DNA from: Octopus vulgaris
Taxonomy: Eukaryota
Direction of reading: 5' to 3'
DNA: 64,000 nucleotides
Assembly: GCA_951406725.2 (NCBI GenBank)
Contig: OX597828.1
Coordinates: forward strand, 64,046,001 to 64,110,000
The position numbers and the translations under genes were made by a program. The stretch's first letter is position 1. Every line of letters begins with the position of its first letter. The notes beneath the pieces are model-generated. The model did no database searches. It saw only the letters and a list, made by a program, of their open reading frames with translations, and was not told the origin of the DNA. Of the stretch, positions 42,720-57,431 are shown piece after piece.

Positions 42720-45700
42720 CAACAACACCCATGTATTAGCTTGGTTTCGGCCATTATCGGCCCAGGCCATGACAAACTCAATAGCACCACATGGGAAAGC
42801 CTTTTAGTTAATTATTTCGGGACACCATGGACCACTCAAGCAGAGAGTTGTTGTTGTTGGTTGTATCCAGATGTGGGTGGTTTATCCGGTATTTCCCGAA
42901 GGAATTTATCCATGTACCGTTTGAAGGTTGTGGGGTCTTTCTCTACTTTAATTTCTTTTGGGATAACACTGAAAAGTGCAGGACCATTGCAGTGAAGAAA
43001 TTGTGTCACAATGTTCTTATGTGATGTGATCTCGACCTTTGTAGGGGACGTATTTCACGAAGGCCTAGTCTTGTGTGAATTGTAAACATTATACCGATAT
43101 CATTTGGATACTATTGGTGGAATATTTTCCACGTGGTGCAAATAATGTATCGTTCACGGCGGCGTTGCAGAGAATAGAGCTTCTGCTGTTTAAGTCGAGC
43201 CCAATAATGAAGTCCCATCATACCATTTATTTTTTGTGATTGAGCTTTGTGGTGCTTCGATCCTCTTTATGTCTTGTTTTTCGTAGGGGAACCACAATAG
43301 GCAGCAGTATTCGAGGTGGGGCCTAAAGAATGTGGAGAAGAGAAGGATGATGGTTTCATGGTCCCTAGATTGGAAAGTTCTGAGGATCCATGAGCACATT
43401 CTGCGGGCTATATCGAATTTTTTTGTTGATGTGCACACTTCAGCTAGGGTTGCTGTCGACAGTTACGCCTAAGTCTCTGATTTAATCCGACGGTACTGTA
43501 TATGGTTGTTTGAGTGCCCACTCTTCCAAAGTGGATGAACTCAAATTTTTCTTCGTTCGACTGCATATTGTTTTTTTTTTGTGCCCATTGGGTTACTGTG
43601 CATAGGTCCGATTGAAGTATTGTTCGATCACATGCACCCTTAATGACTTTCTGGAGCTTAGAGTCATCTGCAAATATTCTTATGGTGCTATGTTCAATAG
43701 AATCTGCAATGTCATTGATATAGACAATAAAAAGAAGTGGATCCAGCACAGTACCCTGCTGAACTCCGCTGATGACTTTTGCTAGTCTTGAGTGGATGCA
43801 TCAACCACAACATACTGGGTCCTGTTTGTTAGGAAATACCTAATCCATTGAAGTAGCTTTCCACCGACTCCAGCGTTGGGTAGTTTTCTTAACAGTATAT
43901 TGTGGTCGACTCTGTCAAAGGCCTTGCTGAAATCAATGTATATGACATTCGCGTTGGAGGCCTCACCTAGTGCATTTAAGATGTCATCAAAGTGGTGGAG
44001 GAGCTGTGTTAGACAGTCCCTCCCACCACGAAAGCCATGCTGGATACATTTTGGATGATTTTGTTCTAGGATTCTTGATCTCAACACTCTCTCAAATACT
44101 TTGGTGATATGTGAGGCGAGTGAGATTGGACGGTAGTTTGCAGGGAGCGATTTATTCCCCCTTTTTAAAGATAGGAACGACTGACTGGGAGAGAAGGTTT
44201 TGAGGGCTAAAACCGGCACCCAGTGATTTTCCTCCAGGGATTAGCAAGAGAAGCTGCAAGTTTCTGTCTGCATTCCTTCAGCACTCTAGTAGGGAACCTG
44301 TCCGGACCCACTGCTAAATCAGGTTCGATTTCTTTTATTACTGCTAGGATAGCAGTGGCGTCGAAGGTTATGTTGGGAAGGACATGTTGAGGATTCACAG
44401 AAGCAAAGCTGCTTGAGTCAACTGAATCAGGGTCACTGAAGACAGAGCAATATTGACTTTACAAGATCTCAGCTATATATTTGACATCACTGTGAAGGAT
44501 ACCGATAGAAGAACCTGTGGTCCTATGGGTTTTTGAAAAGGAGTAAAAGACCTTAGGATTGTCGTTTATGAGGGTTCTCATACAGTTCTGCAGTTGTTGC
44601 TTCCTTGATTCTAAAGTTGCTAATCTTCTCGATTGGGGTGATGCTGATGGTGGTATTTTAGGGTATTGATTTTTCGGTTTGTTCTTTTTATTCTCCTCGT
44701 GAGCGATTTTCTCTGTTTTTGGAATTTTGCTTCTACTGTTGTTTATGAGTCGTGAGGGTGTATGATTTGAGCATATGTGAGTGACTGCGTCCTCAAATAG
44801 TTGCCATGCGTTTGTGTTTGTTGTGGTATTGAAGGAAGCAATCCACTTGCGATAAGTCTTGAGTGATCGCCCTCCATTTGACTTGTATAAATTCCTGTTA
44901 TCAAATGGGTGCACTGGAGTTGGTGATTTATGCCAAATGTTTGGATGCTGAAGATTGAGGTTACAGAGTACTATGTTGTGATCGGAGAGGAGGGTTCTTT
45001 CCACTGTGATGTTATGAATCGTGTTGGCATGGCTGCTTAGCACTAGGTCCAAGACACTTTGGCTATTTCTGGTTGGTTCATGGACGAGTTGTGAGAGGAA
45101 AAAATTATCCATAAATTTAAAAAGTAACTCCACTGCTGCTTTGTCTGAGCTTGAGGTGAGGGTTCCTGGTCTAACAATATTAGTGGACCAATCTACAGAG
45201 GATAGGTTGAAGTTGCTCATCATCAGAATATTTCTTGGGTTACATTGCAGGAGGAAAGATTTGATCTTCTCTAGGCACTCTTGGAAATAGTGTTAAGGGT
45301 GCTTGTGGGAGTCTGTAGAGCCCAATTACAGACAGGTCTTTACCCTTGTTGTGTTCAGAGACTGATTTGCAGTAGCCGTTGGAGAAAATGTCTTTGGCAT
45401 CTGCGCTGAAAGAATCATGGAGGGAAACAGCAACCCCACCCTTTCTTCGGCCTGCCCGATCAGCGCGAATGGCAGTGAAGCCTCTGATTTTCAGTTCAGT
45501 CCTCTAAATGAAGATCGTTAGGTGGGACAAAAAAAAAAGGATTGGGTGTGAGTGTGCAGCAATCTATCCCTCAATGTAGGGTATTTTCCATTTTTGAGCC
45601 TTAATGGCTGGGTTGATCCCTTGGGCATTAAGGAGGAATGTCGTTGTTAAGGCAGCAGGTTTTTTGCGTTTCTTCAATGTCTGCACATGCTTGTTGTTGT

Positions 45701-46008: not shown

Positions 46009-46069
<61 letters not shown>

Positions 46070-46072
<3 letters not shown>

Positions 46073-46581
46073 AAATGGTAATATTGCCATCGATTCCATT
46101 TGTACCATTGTTAAGACGCCTTCTGATCTCAGAGAGGCAGTGTTCCCAGATCTACAAGCTAATTATCAGAATATGGATTGGATTGGCCAAAAGGCTATAC
46201 TGGCCCCGACAAATAAAACTGTTCACCATATTAATGATGAAATGCTAAAACTCATTCCTGGGGAAGTCTATGTATATCAGTCTATCGATACAACTCCTCA
46301 CCCACAGGACGTCATCAACTATCCAATAGAGGTAGTCAATTCCTTTGAGCACCCCGGACTACCACCACACATTCTCAAACTTAAAGTTGGTGCCCCTATA
46401 ATGCTCATCAGAAATTTGGTTCCCCCAAAACAATGCAATGGCACACGTTTGATCGTTAAGTCCTTATCTCTCACCGTAAACTTATATCAATATTTGCCTG
46501 AATAATCATCATAATTCAGTGCAATCATTAACAGTACTTTCAAGCAATTCAGCCCCGAGCAACGCCGGGCAATTCTGCTAG
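46070..46581 (+). mobile_element. Internally deleted Helitron: helicase fragment joined to 3' terminus
   Basis: PIF1-like ORF fragment followed within ~80 bp by CCCGAGCAACGCCGGG hairpin and CTAG|T (46578-46581). Confidence 0.88.
46140..46505 (+). pseudogene. Helitron PIF1-family helicase fragment
   Basis: KAILAPTNKTV, YPIEVVNS, GLPPHILKLKVGAPIMLIRNL, CNGTRL motifs. Confidence 0.9.
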
Positions 46582-47995: not shown

Positions 47996-48104
<109 letters not shown>

Positions 48105-48138
48105 GTTACACCTGATTGATTTGGAAAATTGTTTTCCC

Positions 48139-48238
<100 letters not shown>

Positions 48239-48414
48239 GAAAAAGAGAGAGAGACAAAGACAGAGTAAAGACTGTTTGCCAACATAACAAGGTAGTCCTG
48301 ATTTAGGACGAATTTAGCCCCAGGAGTCATCGTCTCCAGCTGGCTATACGACACGATCTGTGTCCTTATATTTTCGAACAAGGAAATCTTACACCCCAAC
48401 TCAGCTCAAAACAA

Positions 48415-48555
48415 TATGTGTATATATATATGCATCTATATGTATATACATATGTGTATATGTATCTATACGTATATACATATGTGTATATGTATCTATA
48501 CGTATATACATATGTGTATATGTATCTATATGTATATACATAATGTGTATATGTA
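48415..48555. repeat. 30-bp minisatellite (atatgtgtatatgtatctatacgtatatac) about 4 copies
   Basis: Direct reading. Confidence 0.85.
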
Positions 48556-48656
48556 TGTATGTATGTATGTATATATATATATATATATACATACATGAGA
48601 GAGGTGTGTGTGTTTTCAAACACACACAAATAATTAGATTGGTAAGCTGCTATATA

Positions 48657-48689
<33 letters not shown>

Positions 48690-48700
48690 ATCTCTCTCTC

Positions 48701-48759
<59 letters not shown>

Positions 48760-48767
48760 TCTTTTAT

Positions 48768-49118
48768 TTTCTCTTACTTGTTTCAGTCATCTAACTGCGG
48801 CCATGCCGAAGCACCGCCTTAAGTCGACCAGATCGATCCCAGGACTTATTCTTTGTTAGCCTAGTATTTATTCTGTCGGTTTCTTTTGCTGAACAGCTAA
48901 ATTACGAGGACGCAAACACGCCAACATCAGTTGTCAAGCGATGGTGTGGGGATGAATAGATATATATACGACGGGCTCCTTTCAGTTTCTGTCTACCATA
49001 TCTACTCACAAGGCTTTGGTCAACTCGAGGCTATAATAGAAGACACTAGTCCAAGGAATTGAACTCAGAACCACGTGGCTGGGAAGCAAGCTTCTTACCA
49101 CATTGCCATTCCTGCGCC
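48768..49118 (-). mobile_element. SINE family A copy
   Basis: Reverse complement of 38992-39416 with a small internal deletion; ends cctgcgcc. Confidence 0.8.
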
Positions 49119-51728: not shown

Positions 51729-52636
51729 CTGCGTTTCCTTTTATAATGCAGGTTAATCATTCCTCAATAAAATCGAAACCCCCAGTCCGAATTTTTGAAA
51801 TTTTTACCAGATCTGTAGGATCATGTATCCCATGTTTCATGTACTTTTCGTCTAAATTGGAGTACATTTAAAACAGAAATGAAGAAAATTACGTTTATAG
51901 GATGTTTCTTTTTATTATGCAAGTTAAGAAATATTACGTAAACTACATGTTTATGTAATTTACACAGAACACTAGATAAGCAGACCATTAATATATATTT
52001 GTATCTTCCACCGTATAATTATATTCACAAACAACTATGTATATATTTTAACCATGTATATATTTTACATCTTTATATACGCCTCCTTTACGATCTATAA
52101 CTTTAAATATTCTCTCATCAACTGATTTTCTCAATTTCTCAACAATCTCACTTTTAATATTACTTGCAGCAGCTTTTATTGCTTCACACAGAAAATCTTT
52201 GTTTGGATATTGTTTACCATTAGAGTTTACATCGTTTTAAATAACTGACCACAAATTCTCTATTAGGTTTAGATCTGGAGATTGGCGGGGGAGGAGGATT
52301 CCATTATCTTATGTTCTTTGAAACGTTTCTTAGCTAAATGGCTAATAGTGCGTTTGGCAGAGTGTGAAGGGGCATTATCATGCATAAAAATACTCTTTAA
52401 CTTGGGACTTCATGATGTTGACTTTTACCAATGGAAGAAGTTGTCATCTAGAAACTTGCAGTAATTTTCAGCATTTATTTTGACTCCATCAGCAACCTTA
52501 ACTGGACCTATACTGTCTCCTCCAACTATACCAGCCCGAAACATAATCCTACATATCCCGTAAAGATTTAAAGAAAATCGGACAAGAGGTTTTGATTTTA
52601 TTGAGCAATGATTGGCCTGCATAATAAAAGGAAACA

Positions 52637-53170: not shown

Positions 53171-53562
53171 TACAACACAAGGCAACATCTTCGTGTTTGC
53201 ACAACAGACTTCGTTGAGCGATGCTTTGGTTCCGATCGGTAATCACGAACTAATTTACATATGACCATAACCAAGAAACTTGGTTTTCTTATGTCTTATT
53301 CCGAATATGGTTTAGTAATGAAGGAAAGCCTGGCAAATAAAATAAACAATAAAATAAGATGATACAAGTATAAGATATAATACATAACAGAGTTATTACT
53401 CACGCATTAACGTTTGTTATGAGTTTCTTCCAGGCAAGATCAAATCACAACACACTGCTTCTCTTCTTACAAAGCACATACATTCACACATGCACACATA
53501 TACACACACACACATATTTATTTATTCATACGTGTGCTTGTGTGTGCGTGCATATATATATA

Positions 53563-54111
53563 TTCCGTCGCCTCCAGCTTGATCCCACCACCCGCCCCAT
53601 TTTCCCTAACCCACCCCTGTCCTCTTTCAAACGAGCCCGCAATCTGCGTGACCTCCTGGTCCACAGCACCCTCTCCCCTTCCCCCTCAGCCCCACACGGA
53701 TCATTCCCTTGCTCTAGATCCCGCTGCAACACTTGCCCCTTCATCACCAACACCACCGCTGTCACCGGCTCCAACCTGCATACTGTACGCATTAGGCACT
53801 CTTTTACGTGCACCTCGTCTGGCCTTATTTACTGCATTAAATGCAACCTATGCGGGATGCTGTATGTAGGTCAGACGGGACGCCGGTTGTCCGACCGTTT
53901 CACTGAACACTTGAGGGACGTTCGCCTACACTCTTTTTCTCCCGTCGCACGCCGCTTCCGCTCGGCCGGCCATTCCCGAGATGACATCTCAGTGTTTGGT
54001 CTCGCCCCCCACAATGGTCGCCCACTTTCCAGGCTCCACTTGGAGCAACGCTACATCTTCACCCTACAAACTACCACCCCACACGGACTTAACACAGCCC
54101 CCTCCTCTTGA
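53563..54111 (+). pseudogene. Penelope-like GIY-YIG endonuclease domain, uninterrupted C-terminal ~180 aa
   Basis: FKRARNLRDLLV, CSRSRCNTC, FTCTSSGLIYCIKCNLCGMLYVGQTGRRLSDRFTEH, RLHLEQRYIFTLQTTTPHGLN. Confidence 0.93.
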
Positions 54112-56986
54112 GACCGTTTTTTTTTTTTTTTTTTTTTTTTCCGGACACACCACCCACACCCACCCACCCACCTACCTCCCACCCACCTACCTACCTCCCA
54201 CACGCCTGTTCACACACACACATACGTAGACCCATCTACGTACATACATTCACACATTTAATCACACACACTTACAGACACACATGCACATACACACACA
54301 CATACATACACACACGCATACATACTTACACACACACACACACAGACATACATACACACATACACACACACATACATACGCACATACATACACACACACT
54401 CACACACACACACCGCACGTACATACCTCACACACACACACATGCACACATACATGTAGGCACATACATACATACATACCCACACATGCACACCCGTACA
54501 CTGAATGCACACACACATACACCTTTTTGCATCCAGGCAGCCCCCCTCTTTTCTGCTTTCCGGTTTTGGCTGATGGATCCTCGGTTCCCGCGTAGCGGGG
54601 CGTTCGAGGGCCTTTGCGCTCGCGCGCCTTGGCGCGCGCTGGGGCTCGGTCGGCCCCTTTGGGCTTGCGTTGCACTGCTTGTGCGTTGTGTGCGTGAGCG
54701 CGCTTCGTGTGTGTGGGCTTGCTTCGGATGTGCGCTTGCGTATGCTTGCATACATACCCACACACTCGCATGCATCCCTACCCACATACATACACGCACA
54801 CCTACTCACACACACACATACACACACACACACACACACATACACACACATACCCACTTCAGACATACACACACACAGACATACACCCATACACCCACAC
54901 TCACACGCATACACACACACACATACACACGCACACGTACACATACACACACACACACACCCACATACATACATTACACTTGTATACGCACACACTTACA
55001 TTCATACACACACACACCTACACAGCCATACCCTCACTCAGACACACACATCTACCTACACACACACAAACACACACTGACACACACCCATACATAGATA
55101 CATCTACACACTCACGCCTACACACATACATACACACATACATAAACACACACACATACACATACACACACATACGCACACACGCATATACTTATACACA
55201 TGCACACACACACACATACATACACCCATATACATACACACACACATACCTACATACTCCTATACGCACATACATACACACAGACATACACACATACACA
55301 CTCACACAAACATACACACACACATACTTACACACACACTCACCTGCACGCGCACACACATGCATGACAAACACTCATACACTCACACTCACATACGCAC
55401 ACACCAACATAAACACGCACACGCACACACACACCTACACTCCCACACACATACACACGCACCTACATACACACACGCACGCATACACACGCATACACAC
55501 ATACATTACACACGTACACACACACCTACATACACATGCACACACACACACACACAAACATGCACGGACACACCCAGACATACATACATACACCTATATA
55601 CACACGCCTACACACCTACATACACACACATATACACACGCCCACACAGCTACATACACACACATACATACACACATACACGGACACACCCATACATACT
55701 TACATACATACACCTATACACACACGCCTACACACCTACACACACACATGCACACACACACACATGTACGCACATACACACACATATACGCACACACATA
55801 TATACCCACACACATGCACACACACACACATACGCACATACATGCACGCATGCACACGCGCACACCTACACGCATACACACACACACACGCACGTACACA
55901 TACATACATACACACACGCATACATACACCCATACACATACATGCATCCTACACACACATACATACACACTCACACATACATACACACACACGCACTCAC
56001 TCACACACCTGTATGTTCGCGCACACACATGCACATACACACACTTCCCCACACCCACACGTACATACATACACACTCATACACACATACACACACACAC
56101 ACACACGGACATACATCTATGCACACACATATATACACACATACTCACATACATTCATCGGACACACTGCCACCCAGACATACACACAGACACACTCACA
56201 CATCCACACGCACACATACGTACGCGCACACTCGCAGGCTCGCGCACACACGCGTTTGCGCCGGTCCGCGCACGCATGCGCCCGCATGCACCTCGCCCTT
56301 GGACCCGACGAGACCTCCCGCCCGTTCCTGGGATGTCGCTTGTCGTTGGGTTTTCCCACGCCCGTCTCCGCGGGACCACTCTTCCATCTTCCCCTCCGCT
56401 GGAGTCCTTTTCCTAAACCCTCCCCCCTTTTTTTTTTTTTTTTTTTTTCGTTACACACACGCGCACACATACACACACATTGCTTAAACATATACATCAC
56501 TCTTACACACATTCAATCTACTCGCCACTAATACTACCACGACACTGGACACACACACACACTACTACTCAACACACGCTGGCACGCTACATACGCCCCC
56601 ACCCCTTCCCCTCCCTCCCTTCCTCCTTCCTCCCTTTTCTCACTACTGACCTTTGTCTGCTATGCTGCTGCTATGCTGACCACCGTCTCGCCCTACCTCA
56701 CACGCCTACACACAGACGCACACACTAACACATACATATATTTTTTGTTTTTTTACCTCGCCTCACACACACACATACACACACGCACACGCACACACTC
56801 ACACATACACACACATCTGTTGCGTTACCAACCTTGTCTCCACTCTTTTGCCTTTAAAAACCCACTTTGCTCTTGTTATCGTAAACATCCGCCTTTCACC
56901 ATGTGCTACTGCTAACACCAGCCGTTTTTTTCTCTATCTCCGTTGCCCGCTCCGGGATCTTTCTTTCCTCTCTCTTCCTTCTTTAT

Positions 56987-57021
56987 GTTTCCGACGAAGA
57001 GCTCCGCTCGAAACGTCATAC
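56987..57021 (+). ncRNA. Minimal type-I hammerhead ribozyme motif of the PLE terminal repeat
   Basis: gttt-CCGACGA-a-GAGC-tcc-GCTC-GAAA-CG-TC-atac; core variant C4, 4-bp stem II, palindromic ACGT in place of stem III. Confidence 0.6.
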
Positions 57022-57107
57022 CTCCCTGCTTCCATTTCCTGAGCGCCTATTAATAATAATACTGTAATTGTTCCCTTGTTGTTGTTTTTTTGTTTCCCGT
57101 TTGGATT

Positions 57108-57162
<55 letters not shown>

Positions 57163-57431
57163 CTGAGTTACGGGGATGTAACCGAACCAACATTGGTTGT
57201 CAACCAATGAGGAAAAAGTGCTTCATAGATCAGCACACACATTCATACATGTATGTGTGTGTGTATTATTTATAAATATATCATACACATATACACACAT
57301 TCATACAATTTATACCTAAATTTTTTTATGTGCGAAAATGCCTTTGACGGTATCTATGCATGTATGTATAGATAGATAGATAGATGGATACATACGCATG
57401 TGTATATGTATATAAATATATATGCGTACAC

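Follow-up and report, generated by a model that had tools for sequence, protein, structure and literature searches.

An A-poor island in the tail of an octopus Penelope-like element belongs to an inverted repeat with predicted, probably maintained pairing and a possible record of A-to-G editing

RESULTS

An A-poor island in the tail of a Neptune-like element

The stretch of Octopus vulgaris DNA analyzed here (contig OX597828.1, positions 64,046,001 to 64,110,000 of the forward strand; 64 kb, hereafter the window) contains a 200-nt island, 54541–54740, that is nearly devoid of A. An initial annotation placed this island in the tail of a Penelope-like element (PLE) and proposed that it is a fossil of ADAR hyper-editing copied back into DNA. 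The placement is correct: the island sits in the 2.9-kb 3' tail, or pseudo-long terminal repeat (pLTR), of a young Neptune-like PLE with several hundred near-identical copies, and lies 430 nt past the stop codon of a 5'-truncated open reading frame (ORF) for a GIY-YIG endonuclease. The element has the following parts in the window.

53563–54111, + strand: 3' end of the PLE ORF, with a Zn-finger-like linker and GIY-YIG endonuclease
54140–54523, + strand: CA-rich tract 5' of arm 1
54524–54750, + strand: arm 1 of an inverted repeat, the A-poor island; predicted pairing covers 54528–54750
54751–56208, + strand: CA-rich tract, the loop between the arms and a rival pairing partner of arm 1 in its GT-rich 3' part
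56209–56406, + strand: arm 2 of the inverted repeat, carrying 12 of the 16 A>G changes in the arms on the lineage traced below
56992–57019, + strand: putative minimal hammerhead-like motif (sequence motif), typical of PLE pLTRs
57020–57110, + strand: 3' tail of the element, followed by a (TA)n tract (57111–57157)

The window copy is truncated at 53563 and preceded by a (TA)n tract. Full-length copies elsewhere form tandem units of 6.17 kb with a single 950-aa ORF, in which reverse transcriptase (RT) is followed by a C-terminal GIY-YIG domain. Pfam matches to this ORF (RVT_1, E 0.0012; GIY-YIG, E 0.0014) both lie below curated cut-offs; a CX2-5CxxC linker and a CCHH motif are seen in the translation and alignment. 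The ORF has 813 homologues at E ≤ 1e-20, protein identity is 96–100% among the 150 matches scored, as expected of a young family, and the ORF end matches 357 genomic places. The linker and CCHH motif define Neptune-like PLEs (PMC8557442), and a minimal hammerhead motif is typical of PLE pLTRs (PMC4209133). Judged by sequence features, the element agrees with the descriptions of Neptune-like PLEs in these two papers in its linker, CCHH motif, pLTR and target. The element thus resembles endonuclease-bearing (EN+) PLEs of the Neptune clade in its RT, linker, GIY-YIG domain, tandem pLTRs, 3' minimal hammerhead motif and (TA)n insertion, and differs from them in having a pLTR of ∼2.9 kb made of CA tracts with a 200-nt inverted repeat.

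Several features of the copies were noted in passing. The hammerhead-like motif at 56992, whose core is CCGACGA and not CUGANGA, has 12,888 exact matches genome-wide, spread over several PLE families and mostly in short copies; forty loci anchored on it were mostly short copies from other families and proved uninformative. The same-base 5' truncation behind (TA)n at 53552–53563 recurs in one other copy (L041, G000:C14:25126321), which may reflect shared origin or a preferred stop. A non-autonomous element with a fixed start at 53563 was considered and rejected, as other copies continue upstream. Head-to-tail arrays of full 6.17-kb units occur at L031–L033 (G000:C10:97804000-97830000) and L042–L043, and a frameshift close to where the ORF begins is found in many young copies (open frames of 884 aa versus 1008). 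A second and more abundant Neptune-like family (L051–L070), with a protein 68% identical, has a C/T-rich ORF extension and a short CA tail without an inverted repeat.

Base composition and local folding of the island

The island contains 7 A, 59 C, 73 G and 61 T, with 25 CpG. An A count of 7, as originally reported, is the minimum among all 200-nt windows of the 64 kb, and five of these seven A's are preceded by G. The flanks are indeed A-rich (38–41% A, ∼41% C and 5–6% G), at a level slightly below the earlier description of close to half. T makes up 31% of the island, compared to 14% of the flanks.

The sequence motifs quoted in the initial annotation are present. Nevertheless, the predicted local fold of the island is not exceptional, with z scores of −1.31 (sense strand) and −2.77 (antisense strand) for 54520–54770 and −2.4 for the island folded alone. 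Moreover, changes on both sides of a pair numbered 0, 0, 0, 0, 1 and 0 for the six local hairpins that had been proposed, which leaves these hairpins unsupported. An Rfam scan of 53400–57300 found no family (ribozyme, SECIS or other) at gathering score, returning only low-score matches driven by repeats.

A predicted long-range duplex between two arms

The island has its reverse complement in a second GC-rich patch, at 56209–56406. The two form an inverted repeat of ∼200 nt, with the partner ∼1.5 kb downstream. Both arms and their complementarity are present in every copy folded. For the window copy, the predicted duplex contains 147 pairs (102 G-C, 28 A-U and 17 G-U) at −212 kcal/mol, with a z score of −7.2 relative to 25 shuffled versions of arm 2. 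All 13 of 13 copies folded, whose loops are 0.56–1.55 kb long, gave z scores between −5 and −15. Co-folding of the arms gave −218, compared to −174 for the two arms separately. In a consensus fold of 29 copies, from which 15 near-identical young copies were left out, there are 130 pairs between the arms and 3 within arm 1. Ninety percent of the cells in this fold are canonical, versus 25–66% when the arms are slid relative to one another, and 18 pairs have changed on both sides, versus 4–11 when slid. Thus, the notion of the island as duplex RNA stands as a prediction, with a partner that is not local, as had been supposed, but lies in the other arm.

The inverted repeat scores 157. We found none comparable in the sister family (score 36) or in 33 metagenomic relatives (scores 24–98), these being the usable loci among 80 scanned; the other 47 lacked the ORF end or 500 nt of tail. 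The highest-scoring repeat among these relatives (98, in L281) apparently runs past the hammerhead-like motif.

Pairing along the lineage of subfamilies

A diverged tail led to a series of older copies. A tree of 53 ORFs, rooted with the sister family, takes the form of a ladder in which private branches lengthen toward the root, and hence points to one master lineage spanning ∼0.1 substitutions per site. (Of 65 long loci, 12 had too little ORF for the tree and 9 more had no arm 2; twelve duplicate loci were dropped.) Along this lineage, A-U pairs fell from 47 to 29 and G-U pairs from 56 to 19, while G-C pairs rose from 75 to 103. Duplex energy stayed between −208 and −250 kcal/mol at all 25 nodes folded. 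Four neutral settings were simulated 60 times each, and the observed end states surpassed every one of these runs. Conversion of G-U to G-C occurred 31 times per 37.4 sites, compared to control rates of 0.33–0.42 per site. The duplex lost its outer 30 pairs and grew at its inner block, and pairing with the neighboring CA tract weakened over the series, starting at about −55 kcal/mol and ending at −12.

These data, together with the folding models, make a maintained long-range duplex in the PLE tail highly probable. A maintained RNA structure had been named as the alternative to hyper-editing, and that alternative holds for the long duplex and is not supported for the local hairpins. In the open-access literature searched, we found no description of a long-range, compensatorily maintained duplex in a Penelope pLTR.

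Origin of the A-poor composition

Reconstruction of the island places its A-poverty mostly before the traceable history of the family. The A count went from 14 at the root to 11 at the tip, while the C count doubled, from 32 to 64. Of 102 changes in the island, 35 were T>C, compared to 9 C>T, 5 A>G and 8 G>A, so the CpGs and C's of the island are later gains by T>C. These numbers do not support two parts of the initial annotation: the root was already A-poor and GT-rich, with T runs, as opposed to a sense-strand microsatellite converted by A>G; and the CpG-rich domain was not built by A>G. The high T content of the island relative to its flanks is likewise not something that A>G changes could produce.

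The root island resembles an inverted CA tract. Reverse-complementing the island's 3' half makes it flank-like with no edits (−1.34 to −1.57 bits per base) in each of the three oldest copies tested, and the fit to the flanks was worse (−1.74 to −1.76) after the best 20–23 G>A edits of the sense strand. In two intermediate copies, reversion with 22–28 G>A edits fits the flanks equally well or slightly better. When reverted by the best G>A edits, the 3' half does exceed shuffles (z 3.3), as hyper-editing of a CA microsatellite would predict, whereas the 5' half does not (z 0.5).

A strand-specific substitution bias operates on the master lineage, where synonymous T>C changes (55/198) outnumber A>G (13/121; P 2e-4) and A>T (13/78) outnumber T>A (2/128; L035 and relatives). 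This bias is not present on private branches. Its equilibrium lies at ∼5% A, and hence the A-poverty, most of which is old, requires no special upkeep. T>C in the island (35/75) is not above the synonymous rate (22/62; P 0.22), and the bias may underlie the C-rich, G-poor sense strand. The derived C's stabilize the local fold more than random placement (0/400), and no more than context-matched placement (11.5%). A local structure built by T>C alone was dropped as an explanation, given that the local hairpins show no covariation.

Excess of A>G at paired A's

With pairs defined per node, A>G occurred 14 times per 40.6 sites at A-U pairs of the long duplex, compared to 0.07–0.09 per site at control positions (P ∼2e-5); controls were synonymous positions and the unpaired untranslated region (33 per 375). 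The excess was also seen within non-repetitive blocks (4 per 10.5; P ∼0.01) and in three other alignments (13–14 events versus 2.6–3.3 expected). None of the 14 events followed a 5' G (0 per 5.9 sites), a small sample. Sparing of A's with a 5' G, among those changed and those remaining, is what ADAR preference would predict (PMC8586724, PMC5625713). The sense-strand A>G excess that had been anticipated is found at A-U pairs of the long duplex and not in the island as such, where T>C dominates.

In the middle block, 54610–54661, G's of the island lie opposite U's of the partner (at the root, in 9 of 45 pairs), which accounts for the earlier observation that reverting G to A makes parts of the island resemble its flanks. 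Earlier editing of the island is one possible source of these G-U pairs, indistinguishable from C>T in the partner; the context of root G-U pairs does not separate the two origins (P 0.08, 0.19). The pairs arose before the oldest copies found, and any editing behind the root state lies beyond view.

Young copies

A 34-mer from the island has 272 genome matches with A allowed at its 13 G's and 267 with T allowed at its C's. Among the first 100 listed, A is carried by 3 and T by 4. Neither these nor 66 aligned young copies (20 of them chosen as likely variants; three duplicate loci dropped) include a hyper-edited or A-rich island, contrary to the expectation that such copies would be found. In the 66 copies, the sites varying were 1/20 for A>G, 10/81 for G>A, 13/74 for C>T and 12/77 for T>C. 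Contigs from eight runs, none recorded as RNA and three of which gave nothing, listed differences of C>T, T>C, T>G, T>A and G>T only; contigs cannot show editing, and these were not counted.

DISCUSSION

The results fit an account, which we regard as the probable one taken as a whole, in which the island and its partner form an inverted repeat in a PLE tail whose pairing has been maintained. A-U pairs would have turned into G-C by way of G-U, with ADAR edits copied into DNA as a plausible cause of the A>G step. What the reconstructed lineage shows is an oldest state poor in A and rich in GT, a gain of C through T>C, a series of compensatory changes and an excess of A>G. We infer that the duplex forms in vivo and is retained by selection. 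A fold-back duplication around a CA tract presumably generated the two arms. The element transcript would then form a long imperfect duplex between them, in which ADAR, assumed here to be active in the host, occasionally deaminates A's that the element's RT then reads as G. Editing would act as a slow leak of single edits, not in bursts. Frequent T>C in the partner would then seal G-U as G-C, and lineages keeping the arms paired would persist. We put forward only tentatively the identification of the A>G step with host ADAR edits copied by the element's RT. Equally tentative is the notion of a ratchet, by which an element carrying its own ADAR substrate inherits single edits and, under its T>C bias, has editable A's stripped from the duplex. 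Our guess is that the duplex serves as a scaffold, looping out the CA tract and tying the G-rich arm to one specific partner.

Two sets of results weigh against this account. As regards pairing, arm 1 pairs with arm 2 over 75 of 226 nt when the whole region of the window copy is folded; in ten copies so folded, pairing with arm 2 covered 20–114 nt in nine and none in one, and the GT-rich part of arm 1 was often paired with the CA tract, which lies closer. When only the 8 oldest copies were used to define the pairs, no more were kept than under neutrality (87 of 140 versus 89), this old-only set being largely in another register (64 of 147 pairs shared with the full consensus). Column homology in repeats is uncertain and inflates damage in the neutral simulations, support is weak for the deep nodes of the tree, and the reverse-complement fit to the flanks is not above that of dinucleotide shuffles. 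As regards A>G, a 5' U is not favored (1 per 9.9), and with pairs taken from the 8 oldest copies only, the excess (4 per 34) is not significant. Events adjoining CGC make up 8 of the 13–14, and 5–6 are left without them, versus 2.6–2.9 expected (P 0.05–0.16). In an arm-2 35-mer, A>G was found once in 800 cells (first 100 of 355 matches). Private A>G versus T>C changes at A-U pairs number 11 versus 6 in 26 older copies and 0 versus 2 in 18 young ones. No single copy examined has a cluster of A>G changes, the maximum being 3 private events, in one old copy. Bursts are thereby excluded and a slow leak still allowed, because the rate of A>G in the duplex along the lineage is similar to that of T>C, which itself amounts to ∼1–2 per 1000 per young copy.

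It is also conceivable, if less likely, that the same duplex evolved without ADAR, the A>G excess resulting from selection for a stronger, partner-specific helix combined with T>C bias and creep of CG repeats. Conversion of G-U to G-C at 2–2.5 times the control rate would be expected in this case, as would duplex-preserving placement of changes and the weakened pairing with the CA tract; the CGC-adjacent events and the lack of a private A>G excess in young copies also fit. On the other hand, A-U to G-U changes weaken a helix and yet are ∼4–5 times above control. In the event log, several of the new G-U pairs show no later T>C. CGC-adjacent A's outside the duplex are nearly unchanged (0–1 per 18–21), and none of the A>G events comes after a 5' G.

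We consider it improbable that the inverted repeat is an inert relic, held in register by templated correction of one arm from the other during reverse transcription or repair. The fast restoration of mismatched pairs, the loss of the outer 30 pairs and the abundance of the sister family B without any such repeat would be in keeping with this idea. Templated copying would, however, yield Watson-Crick pairs rather than new G-U pairs from A-U, and the changes arrive singly while internal loops accumulate. Least credible, and largely refuted, is the original proposal of a sense-strand CA microsatellite hyper-edited through local hairpins in one or a few cycles: the middle-block G-U pairs and the 3'-half reversion speak for it, and the flat A count, dominant T>C, T-rich composition, 5'-half reversion, uncovarying hairpins and failure to find A-rich or multi-edited copies speak against it.

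Compensatory evolution through G-U intermediates is familiar from RNA helices such as those of rRNA, and several pairs here follow the same route, from A-U via G-U to G-C. The PLE case differs in being directional and in belonging to a selfish element, whose ORF diverged by 0.1 substitutions per site over the series.

Genomically fixed A-to-G hypermutation by ADAR is described for RAV-1, avian leukosis virus and Drosophila sigma virus (PMC8586724). The features in common with the PLE are A>G in duplex RNA, predicted in the PLE, and inheritance through replication. In the viral genomes A's with a 5' G are spared and left over-represented, and the few PLE events may show the same. The viral cases consist of clusters in single genomes, whereas the changes seen here are single, spread over ∼11 lineage nodes without clusters, and attributed to ADAR tentatively. 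Unlike in the viral cases, T>C in the partner tends to come after each A>G. Inverted Alu pairs are edited, lizard Penelope RNA is heavily edited, and hyper-editing in Octopus bimaculoides is very high (PMC5625713). The predicted PLE duplex is similar to the edited inverted repeats covered there, which as usual ADAR substrates are long and have arms within 2 kb; unlike inverted Alu pairs, it is internal to one element. Since the duplex travels within the element, edits can be inherited. RNA structure is reported to matter for RT initiation in another PLE clade, near the ORF start and not at the position considered here (PMC11167929). A retrozyme preprint (10.64898/2026.07.22.740005) and PMC2873906 provide background only.

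If the proposed account is true, RNA edits were written back into the element's DNA one step after another, and the genome preserves a dated record of them. Inheritance of RNA edits via retrotransposition in animals is hard to test, ordered ancestors being rarely at hand; a subfamily ladder, a defined duplex and unpaired controls within one element make the question directly testable. Even without ADAR, there would be a long-range compensatory duplex in a Penelope pLTR and a strand-specific T>C bias of a replicating lineage.

Other sequences in the window

Upstream of the PLE, inspection by eye revealed L2/CR1-type LINE fragments with RT and endonuclease-like frames (43782–45292, − strand), what we take to be a Helitron/PIF1-like helicase fragment (46011–46505, − strand) and, presumably, a Tc1/mariner-like transposase fragment (52425–52560, − strand). 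A local duplication between microsatellites, at 48000–48800, contains two frames with identical text.
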